A stretch of DNA of 64,000 bases from Bacteroidia bacterium (GTDB lineage Bacteria; Bacteroidota; Bacteroidia; B-17B0; Aurantibacillaceae): NCBI GenBank assembly GCA_045805185.1, contig JBJMLS010000300.1, positions 10,259-74,258 on the forward strand. Direction: 5' to 3'. The notes below the pieces were generated by a model. That model searched no databases and was not told the origin of the DNA. It saw nothing but the letters and a program-made list of their open reading frames with translations. Position numbers and translations under genes: made by a program. Positions 2,678 through 62,783 of this stretch are shown one piece after another. Position 1 is the stretch's first letter. The number at the start of each line of letters is the position of its first letter.

Positions 2678-5593
2678 ATGAAAATAAAATTACCCATTTC
2701 AGGCATGATCCGGATCTCGTGTTTTGCTTTAACCACATTAAGTTTAAACGCCCAGATCAGCTTTACGAACTCCAATGCAGTGCTGCATTCCAATACCGGT
2801 GTATTGGGAAGTAATGCAAACGCGCGCAGCGGCAATTCAGTAACCGTTGCGGACATGAACTATGACGGCCTTGATGATATCTGCAAGCTTATCGATAATG
2901 GCGAGGTTCGCATTGAATACCAGCAACCCGGTGGAAGCTACACTTACCAGTATATTGGAACAATGGGCACCACTCAGGCCTGGGCCATGTGCGCCGGAGA
3001 TGTGGATAAAAACGGGTATAAGGATGTGATCGCCGGATATGGAACTTTATTAAAGTTAATGAAGATAGGGCCATCCGGATCAATGGGTGTGACAACACTT
3101 CCAGGCTCTTATTTTGTACAGAATATCAATTTCATGGATGTAAACGCGGACGGCTGGATCGACATCTTTGCCTGTGATGACAATGCTTTTCCGAAATTAT
3201 ATTTGAACGACGGTACCGGAAGCTTCCCGTCTGAGGCTGGAAATACTGTAATAAATTTCGACGTGGCCCCCGGTCAGACGATCGGGTCTTCAAATGATGA
3301 TTCCGGGAATTACGGAAGCGTTTGGACTGATTTCGATAACGATGGCGATGTTGACCTTTATGTAGCACACTGCCGTCAATCTGTTAGCAGCGGAACGGAT
3401 GCAAGAAGGATCGATAAATTATTCGTGAATAACGGAAGCAATGTCTTTACAGAAATGGCTTCAACTTACGGAGTAGCCAGCGGTGATCAGGATTGGACCT
3501 CTTCTTTTGGAGATACCGATAACGATGGCGACTTTGATCTTTTTCTTACCAAGCACAACACCACTTCCAAATTATATACGAACGACGGTACCGGTCATTT
3601 CACTGCAGGAAATAACGTGACATTCGGAAGCATGCCGATGCAGGCGCAATTTGAAGACCTGGATAACGATGCTTTTGTTGACCTGATCATTACAGGAGAT
3701 AACGATCATCGTATTTACCACAATAACGGGAACGGAACCTTCAGCGATGTTACACCAGCAAATCTTACTGCTGGAAGTAACCTGCTTTCCTTTGCAACAG
3801 GCGACCTGAACCACGATGGCAGGATAGACATTTATGGAAGCTATGGAACAACCTATAACAATCCCGGAACTCAGGATGATATTTTCTGGAAGAATACCAC
3901 CAGCAACAGCAATCACTTTCTGACATTGGTTATGATCCCAAGCCTGAGCAACAAAGACGCCTTGGGGACCAAGGCGCGCATCTATGGCTCCTGGGGAGTT
4001 CAGACCCGCGAAGTAAGAGCAGGTGAAAGTTATGGAACAATGAACAGCGGCCACCTGCATTTCGGATTGGGCGGCGCCACGGCAATAGACTCAGTGGTCG
4101 TAACCTGGCCATCAGGCATAAAAACAGTCATTGCAAATCCAGGGGCTGATCAGTTCCTGAATGTCGGCGAACAAAATCCGTGTACTCTCTCTGGCGCAAG
4201 CATTTCACCTTCGGGTTCAACCAATCTTTGTACAGGCGATTCAATTACCTTAACCGCTACCTCAACCAGTACCGGCACCTATACTTATCTCTGGTCGACC
4301 GGCGCAACAACATCGAGTATCAACGTAAGCACTGCCGGTTCCTATGCGGTAACCATCACCGAGTCGGGCATGTGTAATTCCACCTCTCCTTCAGTATCGG
4401 TTACCATTAATGCCAATGAAACGCCTTTGGTAACTGCATCTTCCTCTGTTCTTACTTTCTGCGAAGGGAACAGCGTTACACTTACCTCATCACCTGCATC
4501 TTCTTATGCCTGGTCGGATGGCTCAACCACGCAATCCATTGTAGTGACCACCAGCGGAAATTATTCCGTTACGATCCAGGGAGCTTGTCAAAGCTGGAGC
4601 TCCACTGCTACTTCAGTTACCGTTCTTCCTGCACCTGCTGTGCCTTCAGGATCCGACATTTATATTTCGGGTCCGCAGAGCGTCACGCTTACTGCTACCG
4701 GAAACAGCGACGTTTGGTTCGACGCTCCAACAGGCGGTAACCAGGTCGGAACCGGAAATAACTACACAACCGGCATTGTAACACAGGATACCACTTTTTA
4801 TGTGGAAGATCAGAATTCCTATGGAGGAAGCAGCGCCTTTACCGGACAGACTTACCATTACGGAAGTAGTTACAGCGGAAGTACAGCAACAAATGCTTAT
4901 TCCATCTTTGATGTCCTGAATCCCTGCACATTGAATACGGTAAAAGTGTATACCGATACTCCGGGCAACCGCCTGATTGAATTAAGGAACAGTTCCGGAA
5001 CCGTTATCAATAGCGTAATGGTTAATATTCCTGTCGATACGAGCGTGATCACCCTGAACTTTCCTTTAGCAGTAGGCAACGGTTACCAGCTGGGCACCAA
5101 TGCTGCGCAAAACAACACACTGCTCGGATATGCATCACCGCGCTTAAAACGCAGCAGCAGCAATGTTACTTATCCGTATACCTTAGCTAACCTGGTAAGC
5201 ATTACCAATTCTTCGCAGGGTTCCACAGTATATTATTATTTCTACGATTGGAACGTAGTTGAGGCCCCAAGCATTTGCCCGGGCCCGCGTCATCCGCAAT
5301 CCGTATTGTTCAACGTGGTTGGTATAAATGAATCTGCAACTATGAACACCTTTTCCGTATTTCCAAATCCTGCAAAAGGATCCGTGAACATTGTTGTGAA
5401 TAAGGATTACAGCACACCAATACTTATCGAGCTCACTGATCTTACTGGTCGCATTGTTGCAACCCAATCCGTATCAAAGATCGCTAAAGGACAACAATTG
5501 AACTTTAACCTGGCTGAAGTTGCCCAGGGCGCTTATTTTCTTAAACTGAAAAACGACACTACACAGCTTATCAAAAAGCTGATCGTAGAATAA
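2678..5593 (+). CDS. FG-GAP/VCBS repeat protein with ASPIC/UnbV domain (CRTAC1-like), Ig-like repeats and T9SS type-A C-terminal sorting domain
   Basis: Repeated DxDxDGxxD FG-GAP calcium-loop motifs. UnbV/ASPIC-like block: ALGTKARIYGSWGVQTREVRAGESYGTMNSGHLHFGLG...VVVTWPSG. Two Cys-containing Ig-like repeats. The tail FSVFPNPAKGSVNIV...GAYFLKLKND...KKLIVE is typical of T9SS cargo. Confidence 0.85.
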   Translation: MKIKLPISGMIRISCFALTTLSLNAQISFTNSNAVLHSNTGVLGSNANARSGNSVTVADMNYDGLDDICKLIDNGEVRIEYQQPGGSYTYQYIGTMGTTQAWAMCAGDVDKNGYKDVIAGYGTLLKLMKIGPSGSMGVTTLPGSYFVQNINFMDVNADGWIDIFACDDNAFPKLYLNDGTGSFPSEAGNTVINFDVAPGQTIGSSNDDSGNYGSVWTDFDNDGDVDLYVAHCRQSVSSGTDARRIDKLFVNNGSNVFTEMASTYGVASGDQDWTSSFGDTDNDGDFDLFLTKHNTTSKLYTNDGTGHFTAGNNVTFGSMPMQAQFEDLDNDAFVDLIITGDNDHRIYHNNGNGTFSDVTPANLTAGSNLLSFATGDLNHDGRIDIYGSYGTTYNNPGTQDDIFWKNTTSNSNHFLTLVMIPSLSNKDALGTKARIYGSWGVQTREVRAGESYGTMNSGHLHFGLGGATAIDSVVVTWPSGIKTVIANPGADQFLNVGEQNPCTLSGASISPSGSTNLCTGDSITLTATSTSTGTYTYLWSTGATTSSINVSTAGSYAVTITESGMCNSTSPSVSVTINANETPLVTASSSVLTFCEGNSVTLTSSPASSYAWSDGSTTQSIVVTTSGNYSVTIQGACQSWSSTATSVTVLPAPAVPSGSDIYISGPQSVTLTATGNSDVWFDAPTGGNQVGTGNNYTTGIVTQDTTFYVEDQNSYGGSSAFTGQTYHYGSSYSGSTATNAYSIFDVLNPCTLNTVKVYTDTPGNRLIELRNSSGTVINSVMVNIPVDTSVITLNFPLAVGNGYQLGTNAAQNNTLLGYASPRLKRSSSNVTYPYTLANLVSITNSSQGSTVYYYFYDWNVVEAPSICPGPRHPQSVLFNVVGINESATMNTFSVFPNPAKGSVNIVVNKDYSTPILIELTDLTGRIVATQSVSKIAKGQQLNFNLAEVAQGAYFLKLKNDTTQLIKKLIVE

Positions 5594-5614
5594 ATCTATT
5601 TTTTTACTGAAGAA

Positions 5615-5642
5615 GGGGGACGCTTTAGTGTCCCCCTTTTTT
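5615..5642 (+). terminator. Rho-independent terminator after the FG-GAP gene
   Basis: GGGGGAC stem at 5615-5621 pairs with GTCCCCC at 5630-5636. The loop is 8 nt and a T-run follows at 5637-5642. Confidence 0.65.
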
Positions 5643-5692: not shown

Positions 5693-7948
5693 ATGCTAAT
5701 CGTATTAAGGGTGAAGTCTTTTCTGAGGTCATATTTCGTATTCTTAACTTTACTCTGCAGCTTTTCGCTCACAGCGGTTCCGGATTCGCTTGTGTACCGG
5801 ATCGGCGCTAAGGAACATTTGAATATCACATTCACGGGTAATTTAAAACAGGAGATCCGGAGTTCAAAAAGACTCGTCAACTGCTTTTTGTATAAGATCG
5901 GAAGCAATTATAAATGGGCAACTCCTGCATTTAATGATTCGGGGTGGACGAGAATACATCCCGACCTCGAAGACCTTGCAGAACATACTGATACCATACC
6001 TGTGCTTTGGCTCCGCCTTCATTTTCGTGCCGGGCCCGAAATGCTTCACAAAACCATCGGGCTCAAAATGGAACACCTCGGCGCATCCGAGATTTACCTC
6101 GATGGAAAATTACTCAGGGCTTATGGATTCGTCAGTAATGATGTGAACAAAGAGATTTGTGAGAATCCCAAGAACAGCATTATTGGTTTTTCCTTGAATG
6201 ATACGCTTGAACACTTGCTTGCTATTCGTTATTCCAATGTTCACTATACCACTTATCTCAAGCACGACGAGAATACACCCGGACTAAACCCCGGCTTCAT
6301 AGATTTTGAGGAAGAATACAGTTCAATGAATGACGTTACTACCTATGTTTCCATTGCCTGCGCATCCTTATTCGCTTTCTTTCTTGCGCTGAGCCTTGTT
6401 CACCTTCTTATATTCTCATTCGACCGGGAAAAAAAATTCAACCTCTATCACAGCATTTTTGTGGGGATCTTCGGGATCATCTTTTTACTGCCCATCATTT
6501 ACCAGAACAGTTCAAATCCCGTATTGACTGTAAAACTGAAGTTTTATGCAGAGTACCTGACACCCATCTTTTTTATTTCCCTTCTGGCTCTACTCTATAA
6601 CCTTTTTCAAAAACCACTGGGGAAATTCTTTTACATCTGCCTGATCTCAACCGGCGTCCTGATCCTGATCCGCTTTTTCAGCGAAGGTCTTTTCGACGCG
6701 CTTTGCCCTTTTGTGTTTTTCACGATCTACGTAAGCTCTACCGTTATTGCCATTAAAGCCATCCGTCAAAAATTACCAGGAGCCAAAATAGTAGGCTGGG
6801 GCGTTATTCTATTCACACTTTGCATATTTGCCGCGATCTTTATTTCTACCCTGGCGGCTATGATCGGCAAAGAAGCGCTTAGCGGAGTCGGAGCGCTGGT
6901 GGCAATTATATTATTAGTGTTTGCATTGCTAAGCATGCCCTTGTCCATGTCGGTATACCTTGCCGTTGACTTCGCGCGCGCGAACAAGACACTGAAGAAG
7001 CAGATCTCGCAGATCGAAGAGCTTTCACAGCAATCACTTCTGCAGGAACAGGAAAAAAAGCAGATCCTGGAAAACCAGAATAAATTACTGGAGCAGCAGG
7101 TGATGGAACGTACCACGGAGATCCTGACCAAAAATGAAATTCTCGAGGATCAGAAGAAAGAGATCATGGATAGTATAACTTATGCCAGCCGGATCCAGGA
7201 AGCCATATTACCTGATATCAATGAGATCAAAAAAACACTTCCTCAAAGCTTCGTCCTGTTTAAACCCAAAGACATTGTCAGCGGTGATTTTTATTATTTC
7301 CACAACAGTTCAGGCGCGCTTTCCAAAGACATGCAAAACGCTTCTGTATTTATTGCCGCTGTTGATTGCACCGGTCATGGAGTGCCCGGAGCCTTCATGA
7401 GCATGCTGGGCAAGGAGAGCCTTGATAAGGCCATTTCCGTTTCGGATGTTCCTTCAGAAATTCTTTCTCTTCTCAATAAATATGTAAAGCAATCCCTCAA
7501 GCAGGACAATAACAAAGATGCGACGCGTGATGGAATGGATATCGCTTTTTGTAAGATCGTATCGCGCGGGAATGAGTCCGGTGCGCATATTTATTTTTCA
7601 GGAGCAAATCGCCCGATCTGGATCATCCGGAAAGATACGCGCGAAGTACAGGAAATCAAAGCGACCAAAACCGCGATCGGAGGCTTAACTCCTACAGATC
7701 AAACATTCGATCAGCACGAGATCATTCTTCACCCCGGAGATACCATATACCTGACCAGCGATGGCTACGCCGATCAATTCAGTCCTGAAGACAAGAAACT
7801 GATGACGCGTAAATTCAAAGAAGTGCTTCTCTCTATTTGTGATAAACCGATGCACGAACAGGAAAAGCACCTGAAAGATTTTCATGTGAACTGGAAAGGA
7901 TTAATGGAACAAACGGATGATATCCTGGTGATCGGGATCAGGATTTGA
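5693..7948 (+). CDS. 7TMR-DISM type sensor fused to PP2C/SpoIIE serine phosphatase
   Basis: N-terminal extracytoplasmic domain, about 7 TM helices, a coiled coil (QISQIEELSQQSLLQEQEKKQILENQNKLLEQQ) and a C-terminal SpoIIE-like block (SGDFYYF...DCTGHGVPGAFMS...DGMDIAF...SDGYADQF...DDILVIGIRI). Confidence 0.8.
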   Translation: MLIVLRVKSFLRSYFVFLTLLCSFSLTAVPDSLVYRIGAKEHLNITFTGNLKQEIRSSKRLVNCFLYKIGSNYKWATPAFNDSGWTRIHPDLEDLAEHTDTIPVLWLRLHFRAGPEMLHKTIGLKMEHLGASEIYLDGKLLRAYGFVSNDVNKEICENPKNSIIGFSLNDTLEHLLAIRYSNVHYTTYLKHDENTPGLNPGFIDFEEEYSSMNDVTTYVSIACASLFAFFLALSLVHLLIFSFDREKKFNLYHSIFVGIFGIIFLLPIIYQNSSNPVLTVKLKFYAEYLTPIFFISLLALLYNLFQKPLGKFFYICLISTGVLILIRFFSEGLFDALCPFVFFTIYVSSTVIAIKAIRQKLPGAKIVGWGVILFTLCIFAAIFISTLAAMIGKEALSGVGALVAIILLVFALLSMPLSMSVYLAVDFARANKTLKKQISQIEELSQQSLLQEQEKKQILENQNKLLEQQVMERTTEILTKNEILEDQKKEIMDSITYASRIQEAILPDINEIKKTLPQSFVLFKPKDIVSGDFYYFHNSSGALSKDMQNASVFIAAVDCTGHGVPGAFMSMLGKESLDKAISVSDVPSEILSLLNKYVKQSLKQDNNKDATRDGMDIAFCKIVSRGNESGAHIYFSGANRPIWIIRKDTREVQEIKATKTAIGGLTPTDQTFDQHEIILHPGDTIYLTSDGYADQFSPEDKKLMTRKFKEVLLSICDKPMHEQEKHLKDFHVNWKGLMEQTDDILVIGIRI

Positions 7949-24293: not shown

Positions 24294-24552
24294 ATTATTA
24301 CTGCATCTTTTATTCCTGATGATCCCTTCGCTCTCTGCGCTGGCATTTTAATTGTCAAACAGGTATTGTCCTGATACTTTCATACACCGAAGAAAAACGG
24401 GAAACAGTGTGGTAATACGGACGCTGTTCATGAGCAGACAAAAAAAAACGGGATGGTCCGCACCATTCAACATCGGAGTGTTAAATCTCTCTCCTCAATT
24501 TTCCCCAAAAAGGGGAATTCGTTCTCATTCAAATAAACCAAAACCTATATTT

Positions 24553-51217: not shown

Positions 51218-51760
51218 TCATGCTAATTCTTTTTCCCTGACACGCTTCACCGTCTTCTTCGCCTGTGTTTCTATTTCTTTTTTAATCCTGGAAGCCATTT
51301 CCTCCAGGATCTTTACCAGGTGTTTTTTTTGAGTAAGCTCACTGATGCTCCATTTCTCTTTATCCGCGCGCTTATGAGCAAGCTTGAATTTGAACCCGCT
51401 CATTTCCGTGGAATAAGTGTTGGCATCCAGCTTTTTTACATTTTGAGCGGCAAGTATGTACCAATGGTATTCCGTTCCTACAGGCACACCCGAACCTTCA
51501 GGGGCCTTTCCGGCTCTTCGCTTGGTGACCGCGTAGGAGATCTTCCATTCGTCGGGAGTTACCTTTGTTTCTTTCCATACGCCGCTATCGTAATTCCACT
51601 TATGGCTCCTGCCAACGGCCATTCCCGTATACTGCTTCCCTTCAAATTCCTTGAATTTGTTATAGGATGCAGCCCGGTCCTTTTTCACCGCTTTTGCAGC
51701 GCGCTTCTTTACTTTTTGCGCTGGCGCTACAAGCGCTACCGTTGCTCTGCGTTTAGGCAT
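51218..51760 (-). CDS. hypothetical basic protein with K/A-rich N-terminal tail
   Basis: 180 aa. Starts MPKRRATVALVAPAQKVKKRAAKAVKKDRAAS, then a globular-looking core. No family recognised. Confidence 0.55.
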   Translation of the reverse strand: MPKRRATVALVAPAQKVKKRAAKAVKKDRAASYNKFKEFEGKQYTGMAVGRSHKWNYDSGVWKETKVTPDEWKISYAVTKRRAGKAPEGSGVPVGTEYHWYILAAQNVKKLDANTYSTEMSGFKFKLAHKRADKEKWSISELTQKKHLVKILEEMASRIKKEIETQAKKTVKRVREKELA

Positions 51761-51912
51761 TCTTTTCAGAGCTTAGCTTGAGCGTATAACTGGTGTGCCC
51801 CGTTATTGCCTTGCGCGGCTGATACGAAAAAGTTTTGCGCCATTGAAAAGAATTCAAAGAATACCAGCCTTTGCAGCCGGTACTTTTAAATCCGTATCCG
51901 TACATATTATTG

Positions 51913-52620
51913 TTATTCTTCATCGCTTTCTACTTCTTCCTGGTTTTCAACTTCGTTCTCTACTTCCTCGTCTTCAGTTTCTTCCTCGTCTTCTTCTTCC
52001 TCGTCTTCTTCCTCTTCGGCTGCTTTAATGTTAATGGCGGCTTCCGCTACTTCAGTCAGCTTTTCATCAGCCGCTTTCTCTTCCTCGAGGATCTCTTCCA
52101 GCAGTTCCGCAGCATCATCCAGACCCAGTGTTCTTGCAAAAGTTCTTAACGTGCCGTAGGTCGCTATTTCATAATGCTCCACCTTTTGTCCCGCTGAAAT
52201 GATTCCCGCATCGCGCATGGCTCCTTTATCACATTCCTTCATGATCTCTTCCGCCTCCTTGATCAGGCCAGCCATTGCTTCACATTTCTTTGCCTGCGGT
52301 TTCATTTCCAACAGCTCAAATACCTGCTCCAGCTTTTCAATTTGCCCTTCGGTTTCTTCCAGGTGATTTTCGATCGCTTCGGTCAGATCTTCTGAAGTAG
52401 CATTTTTAGCCATCTTTGGCAACGCCTTGGTCAGCGCTTTTTCCGCCCAGTAAATATCTTTGAGCTCATTCTCAAATAATTTCTTCAGCTTTGTTTCATC
52501 CGATTCTTCCTTCGCGGCTTTCTTTTTAACCGGCGCTTTTACGGCGGCTTTCGCGGTTTTTTTTGCAGATGCGCTTTTCTTTGCGCCCTTTTTTGTAGCT
52601 TGTTTCTTTTTCATAACCAT
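51913..52620 (-). CDS. yciF: ferritin-like DUF892 protein, YciF/YciE homologue, with added K/A-rich N-tail and polyacidic C-tail
   Basis: The core KDIYWAEKALTKALPKMAK...HLEETEGQIEKLEQVF...AGQKVEHYEIATYGTL...EEILEEEKAADEKL aligns by eye with E. coli YciF, which has AAQKVEHYEIASYGTL. Confidence 0.85.
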   Translation of the reverse strand: MVMKKKQATKKGAKKSASAKKTAKAAVKAPVKKKAAKEESDETKLKKLFENELKDIYWAEKALTKALPKMAKNATSEDLTEAIENHLEETEGQIEKLEQVFELLEMKPQAKKCEAMAGLIKEAEEIMKECDKGAMRDAGIISAGQKVEHYEIATYGTLRTFARTLGLDDAAELLEEILEEEKAADEKLTEVAEAAINIKAAEEEEDEEEEDEEETEDEEVENEVENQEEVESDEE

Positions 52621-52623
52621 GTT

Positions 52624-52797
52624 TTACTTATTAAGATGAACTGAATCCGCACTATTATTATTGTTGGTGCTATCGGCCTCCGGGCTGTGATTGTAAGGAC
52701 CGGCATTGTTCTCCTGTTTTTTATTGTTGGTGCAGGAAGTAACTGAAACTGCCAGAACAACGCCAAGTAATAAGAGAGTCGCTTTTATTTTTTTCAT
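52624..52797 (-). CDS. 57-aa lipoprotein (copy A), below the ORF-track cut-off
   Basis: Hand translation gives MKKIKATLLLLGVVLAVSVTSCTNNKKQENNAGPYNHSPEADSTNNNNSADSVHLNK, with lipobox VTSC. It is a paralogue of 53982-54155. Its stop is 3 nt before the yciF-like start. Confidence 0.5.
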   Translation of the reverse strand: MKKIKATLLLLGVVLAVSVTSCTNNKKQENNAGPYNHSPEADSTNNNNSADSVHLNK

Positions 52798-52818
52798 TTT
52801 CTTTTTTTGGTTTTTAAA

Positions 52819-52848
52819 TCAGCGGGCTGACCGGAGTCACCCCGCTGA
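52819..52848 (-). terminator. hairpin between disordered-protein gene 2 and lipoprotein copy A
   Basis: TCAGCGGG (52819-52826) pairs with CCCGCTGA (52841-52848). An inner TGAC/GTCA pairing extends it. The position is the same as that of the hairpin at 54180-54212. Confidence 0.45.
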
Positions 52849-52882
52849 CAATTGATTACGCGATCAGCGTAAATATGTATAA

Positions 52883-53770
52883 TTAATCCTGACGCGAGCG
52901 GTTGCGTGAGCTGGAACTGGTCCTGCTGCGTCCTCTTTCAGAAGAGCTGCTGCGATCACGTCCTGAAGAACGCTGGTTTCTTCCTGAACGGCTCTCCGTA
53001 CGTGAAGAACGCCCGTTAGCATTACTTGCATAACGCTGCTCGCCTGAACGGTGGTTGCGCGACATGTCAGTATCTCCGCGTGAAGAGCGGTATTCCCAAT
53101 CTCCTCCCTGCTGGTTCCCGCTCATCCTGTTCATGGAGTTATTGCCATAACCTCCGCGTGAAGAAGATCCTCCTCCGTAAGAAGAAGACCCACCGCGCTG
53201 TCCACTGCTACTTCCGTAACCGCTGTACTGCTGTCCATAGCTGCCGCCTCCATTAGAAGAGCCGCGTGATTGTCCGTTGCCATTTCTTCCATAACCTCCT
53301 TCATAAGAGGAGCCGCGCGATTGTCCATAACCGCCGCGTGAAGAACGTCCCATTCCCATTCCACTTCCCCCTTCATACTCATCGTAATCGTCTCCACGGT
53401 TAGAATATCCACCACCGGACAATTCGCTTTGACCGTAATCGCTCATCCCATAACCGCGCTGATTGCGGCCATATCCTTCTGTTTCAAAATCGTCATCCTC
53501 ATCTTCATAATTTCCTCGGAAAGAACGCTGGTTATCATATTCGTCTTCCTCATTCTCATCATATCCTGATCCGCGCGAATTCTGTCCGCCATAATTTCCT
53601 TCAAAGTCATTATCATCTTCATCATCGTAACGTTCGTAACGATCGCTACCATAAGTGTAATTGTCCTGGCCGTAATCCGACTGGGACTCATTGTTCTGGT
53701 TACCCCTGTAATTCCCGCGGGAATATGCGCCGCTTGAGCGCGACCCGCCTCTTTGGTTCCTTGTTGTCAT
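52883..53770 (-). CDS. intrinsically disordered G/S/R/Y/D/E/N-rich protein (hydrophilin-like), paralogous N-terminus to 54223-54951
   Basis: 295 aa from the ATG at 53770, starting MTTRNQRGGSRSSGAYSRGNYRGN. There is no hydrophobic segment at all. The order is an acidic-aromatic region, a SYG/RGG-type region and an Arg/Ser-rich tail. Confidence 0.7.
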   Translation of the reverse strand: MTTRNQRGGSRSSGAYSRGNYRGNQNNESQSDYGQDNYTYGSDRYERYDDEDDNDFEGNYGGQNSRGSGYDENEEDEYDNQRSFRGNYEDEDDDFETEGYGRNQRGYGMSDYGQSELSGGGYSNRGDDYDEYEGGSGMGMGRSSRGGYGQSRGSSYEGGYGRNGNGQSRGSSNGGGSYGQQYSGYGSSSGQRGGSSSYGGGSSSRGGYGNNSMNRMSGNQQGGDWEYRSSRGDTDMSRNHRSGEQRYASNANGRSSRTESRSGRNQRSSGRDRSSSSERGRSRTSSSSRNRSRQD

Positions 53771-53882
53771 AAATTGTATGTTTTTTTTAGATTTCCGATC
53801 AAAAGCCAAAGTATATGCCATTCACTTTACTTCAGCTTTTATGTGATTTTTCATTTTACCTTCATCCAAATGGGGAAATATT

Positions 53883-53910
53883 TTTCCACATAAGGGGGAA
53901 AGATTTGTAC
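53883..53910 (-). promoter_or_regulatory. conserved upstream element, copy 2 (TTTCCACATAAGGGGGAAAGATTTGTAC on the plus strand)
   Basis: Begins 113 nt upstream of the ATG at 53770. The near-identical element upstream of 54951 has the same offset. Confidence 0.4.
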
Positions 53911-53981
53911 GGGTCAATTTGATTGCACTATTTTACCCGGATACTGCATTACAGGATACTACTCATGTTCATTTGGCCCTG

Positions 53982-54155
53982 CTATTTTACCTGATTAGAA
54001 TCTTTTGCAGGATATGCGGGAACAGTCCCTGTTGAATCATTACTGTGATTATAATTATCTCTGTTCTCATTGGCCCGTCCGTTATTTTTATTGTCACAGG
54101 CGCTTGCCACCAATGCTAAAAATGCAAGAAGCAAAATTGTGTCCTTAACTTTCAT
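53982..54155 (-). CDS. 57-aa lipoprotein (copy B)
   Basis: From the ATG at 54155 the sequence is MKVKDTILLLAFLALVASACDNKNNGRANENRDNYNHSNDSTGTVPAYPAKDSNQVK, with lipobox ASAC. It has the same length and the same YNHS motif as copy A. Confidence 0.5.
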   Translation of the reverse strand: MKVKDTILLLAFLALVASACDNKNNGRANENRDNYNHSNDSTGTVPAYPAKDSNQVK

Positions 54156-54179
54156 ATTATTTTCTTTAAGAATTGGATT

Positions 54180-54212
54180 AAAAAAACAGCGGGTTGCGAC
54201 CAGCAACCCGCC
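54180..54212 (-). terminator. Rho-independent terminator after the KGG-repeat gene
   Basis: Stem GCGGGTTG/CAACCCGC (54189-54196 with 54204-54211), followed on the coding strand by a T7 run. Confidence 0.6.
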
Positions 54213-54222
54213 GATAAAAAAA

Positions 54223-54951
54223 TTAACGACGGCTGCGTCCGCGTCCGCCATGAGAAGCTTCGCCACCCATGCGTGCAATTTCACGCTGCCTTCTTTCGCT
54301 CATCCCTGCGAAACCACGTCCGCCTGAACGACCTTGTGAACGGCCCTGTCCGGATGATGAACGATCAGAACGACCAGATCCCTGGCTGCGTCCGCGTGAA
54401 GAACCTCTTCCTGATGACCTGCCCCAGCGAGCTTCAGCGCCTAAACGGCCTGCTTCTCTTGCCTCACGTGAATCCCACTCGTGCGCAGTTCCATACTCAT
54501 GCGCAGCTACTCCGCCCATGTGAGCTATTTCGCGCTGCTCATCTTCATCCATTGAAGCAAAACCACGGCGCGAAGTACCTCCACGTGAAGACGAAGAAGA
54601 ACGACCTTCGTTTCCACCTTGAGAACGCTGTGAACGGCCACGTCCGCCATGTGAAGCTTCACCACCCATGCGTGCTATCTCTCTTTGCTCATCCCTGTCC
54701 ATTGAAGCGAAACCCCGGCGCGATCTTCCTCCTCCCTGGTAATCATCATAATAATCATCATCTTCCTCATCTCCGTAATCTTCATACGAACCGCGGGTAT
54801 CGTAATCATCTTCGTCATCGTAATACCTGTCATCGTCTTCGTACTGATCCTCATCATAAGAAGATTCATACCTGTTGTTGTTACCCCTGTAGTTTTCGCG
54901 GGAATAGCCGCCCCCTGAGCGGTTTCCGCCCCTGTTTGATCGTGTTGTCAT
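54223..54951 (-). CDS. KGG-repeat stress-induced protein (YciG/GsiB-like) with disordered acidic-aromatic N-terminal region
   Basis: Three copies of the motif: RRGFASMDRDEQREIARMGGEASHGGRGRS, RRGFASMDEDEQREIAHMGGVAAHE and GRGFAGMSERRQREIARMGGEASHGGRGRS. 242 aa from the ATG at 54951. Confidence 0.8.
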   Translation of the reverse strand: MTTRSNRGGNRSGGGYSRENYRGNNNRYESSYDEDQYEDDDRYYDDEDDYDTRGSYEDYGDEEDDDYYDDYQGGGRSRRGFASMDRDEQREIARMGGEASHGGRGRSQRSQGGNEGRSSSSSRGGTSRRGFASMDEDEQREIAHMGGVAAHEYGTAHEWDSREAREAGRLGAEARWGRSSGRGSSRGRSQGSGRSDRSSSGQGRSQGRSGGRGFAGMSERRQREIARMGGEASHGGRGRSRR

Positions 54952-55063
54952 ATATTTTTTGGTTTTAAAATTCGGGAGGGAGGTTTCCAAACTACATACC
55001 ATTCCATTTTTTTCCTTGTAATCAGGCTTCTGGCACGATATGACATATCTTGCTAGTTACTCA

Positions 55064-55091
55064 TTTCCACAGAGCGGGGAAGTACTTATAC
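55064..55091 (-). promoter_or_regulatory. conserved upstream element, copy 1 (TTTCCACAGAGCGGGGAAGTACTTATAC on the plus strand)
   Basis: Begins 113 nt upstream of the ATG at 54951. It shares TTTCCACA..A..GGGGAA....TT.TAC with copy 2. Confidence 0.4.
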
Positions 55092-55096
55092 TTGCA

Positions 55097-55465
55097 TTAT
55101 TTTTTTGCAAACAGGATCATGATCCACCAGATGAGAAACACCAATTGAACCGCTGAATCTACAATGTAAACAGCGGCAATTATTCCGCGTAAACTGTAAT
55201 AGAGATCAATGCCGGAAACAGCAAGAGCGGTGCTCACTGATAAAAGCGTTCCCACAGGAGAATTACCCGGCTTTAAATGAGCTGCCAGAAAAGACAAGCC
55301 GATACAGAGAAAAAGAACACTGACAGTTTTAACCAGCCACAAATCGGTTTTAGGACCCGTAACTGCCATAAAGCTCGAAATATCCAGGAGCGCCCATAAT
55401 CCGGTCAATAAAGTATAAGCTCCCTGTATAAGGAACAAGTACTTTTTTAAATGATCTTTTGTCAT
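55097..55465 (-). CDS. hypothetical four-TM membrane protein
   Basis: 122 aa with four clear hydrophobic helices. No family recognised. Confidence 0.55.
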   Translation of the reverse strand: MTKDHLKKYLFLIQGAYTLLTGLWALLDISSFMAVTGPKTDLWLVKTVSVLFLCIGLSFLAAHLKPGNSPVGTLLSVSTALAVSGIDLYYSLRGIIAAVYIVDSAVQLVFLIWWIMILFAKK

Positions 55466-55550
55466 ATTCTTTCCTGTTCAATTTCTGTTCCGCAGGAAAA
55501 AGAGCGCGGCATCGCTTTTGAATGCGGAAGCAAAATTAAAAAGAAGGCTA

Positions 55551-55865
55551 ATGAATAACACAAGAAATAAAATACACAGTCCAGAACTTTTAAAGATCAA
55601 TATCCGGGATCAGGAAGAGCTGGATTACTGGATGAAGACATTTCAATGCACCAGAGAAGAATTATATGAAGCAGTAACGGCGGTTGGGCCATCTCCCGCT
55701 AAGGTTGAAAAATTCCTAACCGTCAATGAACAATACGAATTGGAATACTGGGCAAGAAAGTTGAACTGCAGTACGGAAAAATTAAAGCAGGCGGTAAACT
55801 ATGCAGGTAATTCGCTCGATAAGATCGAAAAAGCATTACGCTCTGTTCAAACGGAATATGTTTAA
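55551..55865 (+). CDS. tandem DUF3606-like domain protein
   Basis: Two repeats of the pattern (D/E)xELxYW..K(F/L)xC(T/S)xEEL/KL..AV..(V/A)G(P/N)S..K(V/I)EK.L. ATG at 55551; the track ORF starts at a TTG at 55518. Confidence 0.6.
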   Translation: MNNTRNKIHSPELLKINIRDQEELDYWMKTFQCTREELYEAVTAVGPSPAKVEKFLTVNEQYELEYWARKLNCSTEKLKQAVNYAGNSLDKIEKALRSVQTEYV

Positions 55866-57648: not shown

Positions 57649-58092
57649 ATGGATTCTGTTTTAAGAGCCTTATTGGTTTATATTGTCCTGTTCATTATTC
57701 TCCGCCTCAGCGGCAAGAGAACATTGAATACGAATACGCCCTTCGGGCTGGTGCTTATCTTCCTGATCAGCTCATCCGTGGCTGATGTTCTTAAAGATGA
57801 GGATAAGTCAATTACCAATGGCGTTGTTCTTGCCACTTCGCTGGTGCTTATTCACCTTGCTTTTGCAAGACTGAAGTGGAACAAGCGCAGTATGGAAAAA
57901 GTAATTGAAGATGTTCCCACTCTCCTGGTAAAGAACGGTGAACTTTTGAAAGACCGGATGGAAAGATCACGTATTACAACAGAAGATATATTGTACGCCG
58001 GAAGAAAACAAAAATTGAAGCAGCTTCACCAGATCAAATACGCGATATTGGAAACGGACGGAAGCCTGTGCATTATTCCGAAGGAAGAATAG
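57649..58092 (+). CDS. DUF421 (YetF-like) membrane protein
   Basis: N-terminal TM helices with the RLSGKR motif. The C-terminal LVKNGELLKDRMERSRITTEDILYAGRKQKLKQLHQIKYAILETDGSL is typical of DUF421. Confidence 0.75.
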   Translation: MDSVLRALLVYIVLFIILRLSGKRTLNTNTPFGLVLIFLISSSVADVLKDEDKSITNGVVLATSLVLIHLAFARLKWNKRSMEKVIEDVPTLLVKNGELLKDRMERSRITTEDILYAGRKQKLKQLHQIKYAILETDGSLCIIPKEE

Positions 58093-60802: not shown

Positions 60803-61210
60803 ATGGGAACAGGCACGGAATACATTTATATGCTGGAAGAAGATCCGGATGACCGGATTATTACAAGCGAAACCTTGAATGAACTTGGCATTGGAATTCC
60901 TTTTTTTTATTTCAGCGATCCGGATGAGCTGATCTCTTCGCTCCATTCAGGCAAGCGCCCTTCTCTTATTCTTCTCGATTATCAGTCCGCTACTTCACCC
61001 GGACTGGAATTACTGAAGACCCTGAAATCATCCGGCTCATTCAATGACATTCCCGTTGTAGTGCTTGGCGAGCTTTCATTGCGGCCCATGATCAGGGAAT
61101 GCTACAGCCTTGGCGCGAATTCGTATATCACTAAGCCTTCCGATATACAACAGATCCAGCTTAAGATCAAAACATTTATTGAGTATTGGTTCACTGTTGC
61201 TGAGATCTGA
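60803..61210 (+). CDS. stand-alone response regulator receiver (CheY-like) protein
   Basis: Acidic pocket LEEDPDD, phospho-acceptor context LILLDY, and the conserved T/K positions (VVVLG...; ITKP). Confidence 0.85.
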   Translation: MGTGTEYIYMLEEDPDDRIITSETLNELGIGIPFFYFSDPDELISSLHSGKRPSLILLDYQSATSPGLELLKTLKSSGSFNDIPVVVLGELSLRPMIRECYSLGANSYITKPSDIQQIQLKIKTFIEYWFTVAEI

Positions 61211-62262: not shown

Positions 62263-62664
62263 TTAAATCCCTGCTGTTGGCTGCATTTCCATTTGAGCCC
62301 TGAGCCATTCCATTGCAGCTTCACGGTTACTGAAAATCTTAGTGACCACAGCCGGCTTATTCAGCTTGTTGTAAAGATCGCCCAATAAAGCAAGCGAGAA
62401 ATTATTGGTAACAAAAGCAACCGCTTTCATGTGCGATGAAAATTCCGCAGAAGCGCTCAGCTCGCGTACTTTCCGCGTCGCCCTGAAAAAACCTTTTCCT
62501 TCCGCAATCACATAGAACCTGGCCCCCGGTTTATAATTCATAAGCGCCTCTTTGGCTTCGATTGCGATGTCGATATCATGTGTCACACCTTCCTTTATGT
62601 AATATTCCACAAGGAGATCATCGTGAACATGCATGACATAAAATTCGGTTTCTATGGTCTTCAT
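62263..62664 (-). CDS. hypothetical protein, possibly STAS/SpoIIAA-like fold
   Basis: 133 aa from the ATG at 62664. The alternating beta/alpha pattern and size resemble SpoIIAA-like (STAS/SEC14-like) proteins. This call is weak and from memory. Confidence 0.4.
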   Translation of the reverse strand: MKTIETEFYVMHVHDDLLVEYYIKEGVTHDIDIAIEAKEALMNYKPGARFYVIAEGKGFFRATRKVRELSASAEFSSHMKAVAFVTNNFSLALLGDLYNKLNKPAVVTKIFSNREAAMEWLRAQMEMQPTAGI

Positions 62665-62783
62665 AAGGACGCAAATATAAAGCTTTCCATTGATATGCAT
62701 TCAGCAGAAGCCCGACGGGATCCGGACCAACTATTCGCCCCTATCGCGGCCAAAAAATACTTATATTAGTGAAGTAATAACGC

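Follow-up and report, generated by a model that had tools for sequence, protein, structure and literature searches.

Genes and features of the cluster

The subject of this analysis is a group of six genes at approximately 51218–55100 on the minus strand of a 64,000-nucleotide (nt) stretch of DNA, hereafter the window, from a soil-type metagenome-assembled genome (MAG) named "Bacteroidia bacterium". A preliminary description had presented this group as a stress cluster of the yciG/yciF type expanded by the tandem duplication of a module, and the list of open reading frames (ORFs) of the window contains all six ORFs at the coordinates given there, all of them on the minus strand (Table 1). The first four constitute the two modules, each of which pairs a gene for a disordered protein (the KGG-repeat hydrophilin, here the KGG protein, and disordered protein 2) with a gene for a lipoprotein of 57 amino acids (aa); they are followed by a gene for a DUF892/YciF-type protein and a gene for a basic 180-aa protein. 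To judge by the accession series MFL5754423 to MFL5754429, each of the four module ORFs is annotated as a coding sequence (CDS). Their ATGs are each preceded by an A-rich leader, in keeping with the Kozak-like context of translation initiation that has been reported for Bacteroidota.

Table 1. Genes, upstream blocks and hairpins of the cluster, with positions in the window.
Feature	Position	Strand	Remarks
KGG-repeat hydrophilin	54951-54223	-	242 aa; Pfam KGG x3
small lipoprotein 1	54155-53982	-	57 aa; lipobox ASAC; CDS ACJ76F_13530
disordered protein 2	53770-52883	-	295 aa; without Pfam family
small lipoprotein 2	52797-52624	-	57 aa; lipobox VTSC; CDS ACJ76F_13520
DUF892/YciF-type protein	52620-51913	-	235 aa; NCBI start 52614 = 233 aa, MFL5754424.1
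basic 180-aa protein	51760-51218	-	net charge +23; no family in Pfam, NCBIfam, PADLOC
upstream block 1, copy 1	55064-55081	-	TTCCCCGCTCTGTGGAAA; about 113-130 nt before ATG
upstream block 2, copy 1	54987-55004	-	GAATGGTATGTAGTTTGG; 35 nt before ATG
upstream block 1, copy 2	53883-53900	-	TTCCCCCTTATGTGGAAA
upstream block 2, copy 2	53806-53823	-	GAATGGCATATACTTTGG
hairpin 1	54180-54213	-	canonical intrinsic terminator; 11-bp stem, 5-nt loop, U7
hairpin 2	52818-52849	-	strong 9+4-bp stem-loop, without U-tract
terminator-like hairpin after DUF892 gene	51860-51884	-	terminator of the likely P2 unit

Profile searches bore out the assignment to the yciG/yciF type. A protein was classed as KGG/YciG-type if it carried at least one copy of the approximately 22-residue KGG repeat above the Pfam gathering threshold: The KGG protein carries three (PF10685; 81.8 bits with a cut-off of 20.4, E = 3.6e-23), and nearly all of its 171 homologues contain PF10685, many of them under the name "general stress protein YciG". 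The DUF892 protein matches PF05974 over profile positions 2–158 of 159 (202 bits, E = 6.9e-60) and was classed as YciF-type also by its matches of E ~ 1e-40 to the solved structures 4ERU (E = 2.8e-41) and 2GS4 (E = 5.1e-40), PDB entries in which YciF-type proteins are named stress-response ferritin-like proteins. Both lipoproteins, disordered protein 2 and the basic 180-aa protein have no Pfam family, and NCBIfam and PADLOC returned nothing on the cluster proteins beyond one sub-threshold match of lipoprotein 2 to PG1828. At its N-terminus, the YciF-like protein additionally bears a Lys/Ala-rich tail of some 40 aa that resembles histone H1 and is of a basic kind also found on DUF892 proteins from other Bacteroidota (as at locus L026 of the comparison set described below); at its C-terminus it has an acidic tail of some 35 aa, whose coding sequence consists of imperfect GAA/GAG tandem repeats (Tandem Repeats Finder, 51916-52017).

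The heads of the two modules

The two disordered proteins have a charge layout in common, consisting of a basic head, an acidic D/E/Y-rich segment (net −21 or −22) and a basic G/S/R-rich body. In the KGG protein, the basic N-terminal motif and the acidic segment are followed by the three KGG repeats in G/S/R-rich linkers; in disordered protein 2, the acidic segment is DY-rich and precedes a G/S/R/Y-rich body and an RS-rich tail, and the protein contains nine [GS]Y[GS] and four RGG motifs. By composition, both are hydrophilins in the operational sense, with 19.0% Gly and a grand average of hydropathy (GRAVY) of −1.77 in the KGG protein, and 20.7% Gly and a GRAVY of −1.92 in disordered protein 2. 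Hydrophilins are defined by a Gly content above 6% and high hydrophilicity, that is, strongly negative hydropathy. The N-terminal likeness noted in the preliminary description proved to be more than shared low complexity: 36 of 60 residues (60%) are identical at a composition-adjusted E of 2e-11, and the motif MTTRxxRGGxRSxGxYSRxNYRGN is common to both proteins. Beyond approximately codon 25–60, neither the proteins nor the genes could be aligned, and BLASTP of the two proteins outside the N-terminus gave E = 33. A KGG repeat in disordered protein 2 was not found by Pfam at E ≤ 0.1. As judged from sequence, the paralogy of disordered protein 2 with the KGG protein is confined to the N-terminus, and we did not file disordered protein 2 as a KGG protein.

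Upstream of both genes lie two conserved blocks, block 1 with the consensus TTCCCCnnTnTGTGGAAA and block 2 with the consensus GAATGGyATrTAsTTTGG. Their spacing confirms the fixed offsets that had been claimed earlier, since 59 nt separate block 1 from block 2 and 35 nt separate block 2 from the ATG in both copies, equal to the base. When the two copies were compared without gaps and anchored on their ATGs, three islands of 60–85% identity emerged, namely −140 to −113 (block 1), −62 to −36 (block 2) and −15 to +75 (start codon and first ~25 codons), separated by spacers whose identity of 10–30% equals the random level. Within the first 24 codons (54880-54951 and 53699-53770, minus strand), 13 of the 17 conserved non-Met residues are encoded by the identical codon, compared with 5.0 expected from the codon usage of the window (P ~ 9e-5). 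Such codon identity beside randomized promoter spacers suggests either selection at the nucleotide level in the 5′ part of the coding sequence or patchy gene conversion.

Neither block has a further copy at zero mismatches in the window, and 0.94 Mb of related loci contain no match to them. One match of block 1 with a single mismatch, at 24500-24517, lies inside an ORF and was judged to be due to chance. Block 1 is an imperfect palindrome, TTCC-N9-GGAA, which suggests a dimeric regulator and makes the block a putative regulator site; block 2 contains a −7-like TAnTTTG element and is probably the core promoter. The two blocks match no promoter type that we could name. We also considered whether the leader might act as RNA: Rfam returned nothing at its gathering thresholds (best match an archaeal snoRNA, E = 0.12), the minimum-free-energy folds of −145 to +90 are not alike in the two copies and show no unusual stability (z = +0.64 and −1.99), and a helix common to both copies that RNAalifold draws from block 1 to +62 to +72 is without covariation. 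For these reasons a structured RNA is unlikely and the blocks are more likely DNA elements.

The start codons deserve a comment because both copies contain an in-frame ATG inside block 2, 17 codons upstream. We rejected it and kept the start at MTTR since the intervening peptide is not conserved and the three differences within block 2 fall on second codon positions. In copy 1 there is, moreover, an upstream ORF of 19 codons (54955-55014, minus strand; MEWYVVWKPPSRILKPKNI), whose start lies a little ahead of block 2 and whose stop overlaps the KGG start codon as ATGA; it was dismissed as probably not functional, copy 2 being without a start codon in that frame.

Searches for the shared N-terminal motif returned nothing. 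The profile search is a weak negative, as the window's own two proteins were not recovered either; we suspect the composition-bias correction of HMMER, or they may be absent from the collection, and indeed neither disordered protein, with either candidate start, is present in the collection searched. Likewise weak is a first metagenome scan, in which nothing was confirmed and whose patterns covered acidic low-complexity sequence only. A 44-bit degenerate DNA pattern for GGxRSxGxYSRxNYRG had zero matches in metagenome contigs, again a weak negative as the pattern requires 12 exactly conserved residues, and none of the 120 KGG homologues listed has the motif.

Hairpins, lipoproteins and related loci

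Each disordered-protein gene is followed by a hairpin. Hairpin 1 begins 9 nt after the KGG stop codon and ends 31 nt before the ATG of lipoprotein 1, and hairpin 2 ends 20 nt before the ATG of lipoprotein 2; in comparison with shuffled sequences their strengths correspond to z = −4.7 and −6.5, respectively. The earlier statement that both begin with CAGCGGG is approximate, as the 5′ arms on the coding strand read CGGCGGG and CAGCGGG; both do end with CCCGCTG, so that 13 of the 14 nt of the basal stems, C[G/A]GCGGG...CCCGCTG, are shared. The upper stems differ, and the U-tract is found on hairpin 1 only (11 bp plus U7). As gaps of 31 and 20 nt do not accommodate a promoter between hairpin and ATG, we infer transcription of the lipoprotein genes by read-through. 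The likely transcription units would be P1–KGG gene–terminator–lipoprotein 1 gene and P2–disordered protein 2 gene–hairpin–lipoprotein 2 gene–YciF gene–terminator, with the basic 180-aa gene coming after the P2 unit. The hairpins would set a ratio of much disordered protein to little lipoprotein, and the read-through transcript of module 2 would run on directly into the YciF-like gene, whose start (52620 or 52614, depending on the choice) lies 3–9 nt behind the stop of lipoprotein 2.

Both 57-aa products are lipoproteins by the presence of a signal peptide and a lipobox with its invariant Cys, lipidation being predicted from sequence. Lipoprotein 1 (...LALVASA-C) has this Cys at residue 20 and an Asn-rich mature part of 38 aa with a GRAVY of −1.86, and lipoprotein 2 (...AVSVTS-C) has it at residue 22 and a mature part of 36 aa with 28% Asn and a GRAVY of −1.78. 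With 24–28% Asn and a GRAVY of about −1.8, the mature parts are expected to be disordered lipopeptides. In the window, a generic lipobox filter for ORFs of at least 40 aa is passed by these two ORFs only, compared with 0.17 in shuffled windows; the filter was designed after we had seen the ORFs and is somewhat circular, although the lipobox definition itself is standard. The chance that both fall into two specific gaps of ~250 nt is of the order of 1e-7, and NCBI annotates both as CDSs for hypothetical proteins (ACJ76F_13530 and ACJ76F_13520). We consider it highly probable, from these sequence features, that the 57-codon ORFs are real genes.

The claimed likeness of the two lipoproteins held in part. 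They are equal in length, both have a lipobox, and both carry YNHS at residues 35–38; they are also reciprocal best six-frame matches in the window (E = 1e-4, next best 0.18), and BLASTP of one to the other gives E = 0.035. Their mature parts, on the other hand, are not significantly similar (P = 0.09, composition-preserving shuffles), and the DNA identity around them is at background, with 0.28 upstream of the coding part and 0.38 within it. What speaks for their homology is position, length, the shared 4-mer and signal-peptide similarity. In a word-indexed search of 5.8 billion proteins, nothing but the two themselves was recovered. An exhaustive scan with HMMER, which covered 1.84 billion representatives, recovered the two and P0126, a 1384-aa repeat protein that matches via six copies of GPYDHSADGTS and was judged spurious. 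No profile of the known small-lipoprotein families (OsmB/Gly-zipper, entericidin, PG1828) matched above threshold; the PG1828 match of lipoprotein 2 (NF050142) has E = 1.2e-4 and spans profile positions 1–30, with 22.7 bits and a cut-off of 50. In the collections covered, the two lipoproteins are orphans that have no homologue outside this genome.

To place the cluster among related loci, we compared it with 80 DUF892 loci from GTDB species representatives and nine loci retrieved via KGG homologues, which are cited by L numbers. The conservation of the lipoprotein/disordered-protein pairing in related genomes, whose absence the preliminary description would have counted as a refutation, largely failed to appear: The two lipoproteins and disordered protein 2 were found in 0 of the 80 DUF892 loci and 0 of the nine KGG-derived loci, and in terms of homology the pairing of lipoprotein and hydrophilin is thus not conserved. 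A KGG gene adjoins a DUF892 gene in six other contexts among Bacteroidota and metagenome loci (L071, L081, L084–86, L088), and the association of such a hydrophilin with YciF is already known. The 80 DUF892 loci contain neither the basic 180-aa protein nor the flanking genes and have no neighbours in common with the window. A homologue of the basic 180-aa protein, 60% identical over 135 aa, is encoded at the metagenome locus L083 (3195-3938, plus strand), where its gene is flanked by one for a ferritin-like DUF2383 protein and, directly downstream, by a KGG gene; the protein may be an unrecognized conserved member of Bacteroidota stress clusters. Its single-sequence AlphaFold2 model was unusable, with a predicted local distance difference test (pLDDT) score of 39.9.

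Small lipoproteins of other kinds do occur in such loci. We scanned 1.0 Mb (window plus loci) for lipobox ORFs of 40–110 aa with a hydrophilic mature part and obtained, besides the two genes of the window, three other kinds (L001, L026, L084–86). The ORF of L001 lies 4 kb from DUF892. In L026, from Flavobacterium quisquiliarum, a 95-aa lipoprotein (5260-5547, plus strand) is encoded ~415 nt upstream of DUF892; in L049, a 94-aa lipoprotein (5358-5642, plus strand) that is 54% identical to it is encoded ~360 nt upstream, and was found by a regular-expression scan plus tblastn and not by the lipobox filter. Both belong to Flavobacteriaceae, are Ser/Thr/Asp-rich and lie on the same strand as DUF892. 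Their mature start, C-K-N-N..DPY..DST, resembles C-T-N-N..GPY..DST of lipoprotein 2, with which this type is 42% identical over 45 aa (E = 0.001 as a single comparison); with composition controlled, the mature parts give P = 0.04 for L026 and P = 0.25 for L049. L084 encodes a 105-aa Asn-rich hydrophilic lipoprotein (3440-3757, minus strand) divergently from its KGG gene (4001-4945, plus strand), which is followed by DUF892 (5104-5634, plus strand) and a gene for a 64-aa G/S/R-rich disordered protein (5790-5984, minus strand). L084 also has response-regulator and HSP20 genes close by; its arrangement, including the lipoprotein gene, is repeated in L085 and L086. Small hydrophilic proteins flank the KGG gene in L087. 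Directly upstream of DUF892 or DUF2383, L015 (5420-5590), L035 (974-1147) and L083 (2242-2406) each have on the plus strand an ORF of 54–57 aa with a lipobox and then a second hydrophobic segment (...SC.xIGDIFxAG.xxGI...), for which no Pfam family is on record. Neither the lipoproteins from the scan of the loci nor that of L049 are significantly similar to those of the window once composition is controlled (P = 0.01–0.3). The recurrence of small hydrophilic lipoproteins beside KGG and DUF892 genes is a weak hint, recognized post hoc, of a recurring guild of protein kinds and does not speak for a conserved system.

The GC content of the cluster (0.39-0.53) is like that of its surroundings. We rejected a foreign island on account of this composition, and anti-phage defence because PADLOC gave no matches. 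The neighbours include genes for a tandem DUF3606 protein (55518-55865, plus strand), a DUF421/YetF-type membrane protein (57649-58092, plus strand), a stand-alone response-regulator receiver (60803-61210, plus strand) and a SpoIIAA-like DUF7793 protein (62263-62700, minus strand). They are loosely consistent with a stress neighbourhood and show no synteny with the DUF892 loci examined.

Duplication history and presumed function

We lean towards reading the locus as a yciG/yciF-type general-stress cluster in which one whole expression module was duplicated in tandem and then diverged. Each module would comprise, in this order, a distal palindromic block, a proximal promoter block, a disordered-protein gene, a stem-loop directly after its stop codon and, starting 20–31 nt after the stem-loop, a 57-codon lipoprotein gene. 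Because the promoter architecture is common to both modules, they would respond to one signal, and we infer that they are co-regulated. With regard to the duplication as such, copying of the whole module is with good probability the most economical explanation, since it accounts for the collinear order, the hairpin stems and the equal ORF lengths. The tandem duplication proposed earlier was upheld insofar as there are two collinear modules; in the nucleotide comparison, alignable homology is confined to the head, a global DNA alignment of the modules being uninformative beyond the first ~240 columns, and by this measure the strictly demonstrable homology ends with the head. Several points weigh against our reading. 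For the 3′ half of the module, the argument for duplication is built on collinearity and small features, and the mature lipoproteins are among the parts that lack significant similarity. The locus is known from a single MAG, and the N-terminal motif and the lipoproteins were found nowhere else, which leaves selection without comparative support. Block 2 is not the canonical Bacteroidota promoter (TAnnTTTG with −33 TTTG). Moreover, hairpin 1 as a canonical terminator could simply end transcription, and a promoter of the lipoprotein genes may lie inside the 3′ ends of the disordered-protein genes.

The limits of the demonstrable homology, −140 to +75 relative to the ATG, could also mean that a head of only ~215 bp, with the promoter blocks and the first ~25 codons, was copied by partial duplication or gene conversion onto an unrelated disordered-protein gene. 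The hairpin and lipoprotein tails would then not be homologous, as small Asn-rich lipoproteins and GC-rich terminators look alike. The excess of identical codons is what patchy gene conversion would give, and the background-level DNA around the lipoproteins and the dissimilarity of their mature parts are in line with such a history. We nevertheless hold it to be rather unlikely: The full order of parts is collinear, both ORFs have 57 codons and place YNHS at the same residues, the basal stems of the hairpins are nearly identical, and the lipoproteins are each other's best matches in the window. The random spacers within the head, in turn, argue for an old divergence with selected islands and not for a recent conversion tract.

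Whole-module duplication would also assign each lipoprotein to a disordered protein, whereas the tight coupling of lipoprotein 2 to the DUF892 start, across 3–9 nt, allows YciF to be the true partner; the lipoprotein–yciF pair would then be the older one and lipoprotein 1 a leftover of the duplication. In accord with this, the 94–95-aa lipoproteins of L026 and L049 stand 360–450 nt upstream of DUF892 on the same strand and can be aligned with lipoprotein 2, and the 54–57-aa lipobox/transmembrane ORFs of L015, L035 and L083 precede DUF892 or DUF2383. Yet such an ORF is present in only 2 of 19 loci from records named Flavobacterium and in 3–5 of the 80 DUF892 loci overall, the alignment largely loses its significance under composition control (P = 0.04 and 0.25), and no DUF892 gene follows lipoprotein 1, which makes YciF an improbable partner in our view. 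We give still less credit to the idea that the 57-codon ORFs are unexpressed chance or decaying frames behind ordinary terminators. Their lack of homologues in any database searched, the low complexity of the mature sequence and the canonical terminator directly upstream of lipoprotein 1 are what one would see in that case; a complete signal peptide and lipobox in both, their standing as the sole two lipobox ORFs in 64 kb, a chance placement of ~1e-7, equal lengths, the A-rich initiation context and the NCBI annotation are not readily reconciled with it.

As to function, a general-stress protection cluster is the best-supported reading by analogy with known systems. To judge by the homology to YciF and to KGG proteins, the inducing signal would be desiccation, osmotic or stationary-phase stress; the disordered proteins would protect cytoplasmic macromolecules, YciF would control iron or oxidative damage, and the lipopeptides would possibly protect the envelope. 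As in yciGFE of E. coli and Salmonella, a KGG-repeat gene stands beside a DUF892/YciF gene on the same strand. Unlike yciGFE, the window cluster is without a YciE paralogue, its KGG protein of 242 aa has an added basic N-terminal motif and acidic D/E/Y-rich segment, and genes for two small lipoproteins and for a disordered paralogue without KGG repeats lie in between. Bacteroidota are not known to have RpoS, so that regulation must differ from that of yciGFE. A bacterial hydrophilin to which the window's disordered proteins can be compared is GsiB of B. subtilis. The protective role suggested at the outset is a reasonable one by analogy with Acinetobacter baumannii, in which the KGG-domain disordered protein ABUW_2433 is required for desiccation tolerance, mutants being more than 100-fold more sensitive (bioRxiv 10.1101/2021.08.11.455981). 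The window proteins resemble ABUW_2433 in being disordered, Gly-rich and strongly hydrophilic and, in the case of the KGG protein, in the KGG motif, but have no sequence similarity to it outside the KGG repeats, and disordered protein 2 has [GS]Y[GS]/RGG/RS-rich low complexity in place of the repeat.

For the lipoproteins, several small-lipoprotein systems offer themselves for comparison. The entericidin genes ecnAB (EcnA/EcnB) are a tandem pair of paralogous small lipoprotein genes. Mature OsmB and the entericidins are Gly-zipper or amphipathic, whereas the mature parts in the window are Asn-rich and predicted to be disordered. The PG1828 family of Porphyromonas is likewise a Bacteroidota lipoprotein of ~59 aa, but only the signal peptide of lipoprotein 2 aligns with it and lipoprotein 1 has no match; neither is a member. 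The preliminary description knew of no described role for a small lipoprotein in such a setting and thereby overlooked the osmotically inducible lipoproteins OsmB and OsmE of the E. coli sigma-S regulon (PMC4447067), though these are not adjacent to yciG. OsmB and OsmE, although unrelated in sequence, are a precedent for a small lipoprotein in a stress regulon. The window lipoproteins would be like them as very small members of a general-stress or osmotic regulon, and differ from them and from the entericidins in that there is no sequence or family match and that the genes of those proteins are not adjacent to hydrophilin genes. A bolder view, which we offer as a long shot, takes the 57-aa products as "lipid-anchored hydrophilins", Asn-rich peptides that would be tethered to an envelope membrane and supplied, through read-through of the terminator, at a fixed low ratio to a cytoplasmic hydrophilin. 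Under drying or osmotic shock, a single promoter would in that case serve the protection of both compartments, and the lipoproteins of L084–86, L026 and L049 would represent repeated convergent recruitment, evolving too fast for homology searches.

By sequence, the locus is best described as a lineage-specific tandem-duplication variant of the known KGG/YciF stress cluster and not as a new system, and it is a candidate for a targeted experiment rather than a discovery. Its value lies in the poorly understood mechanisms of two widespread kinds of stress protein, the KGG hydrophilins and the YciF-type proteins. The cluster holds a natural pair of paralogues with a common promoter architecture and a common N-terminal motif of 24 residues, one of which keeps the KGG repeats and the other of which has FUS-like [GS]Y[GS]/RGG/RS low complexity, and this pair could help to separate the role of the KGG repeat from that of general disorder. 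If the lipoproteins are expressed together with the disordered proteins, they would constitute an envelope-side counterpart of cytoplasmic hydrophilins that has not been described previously.

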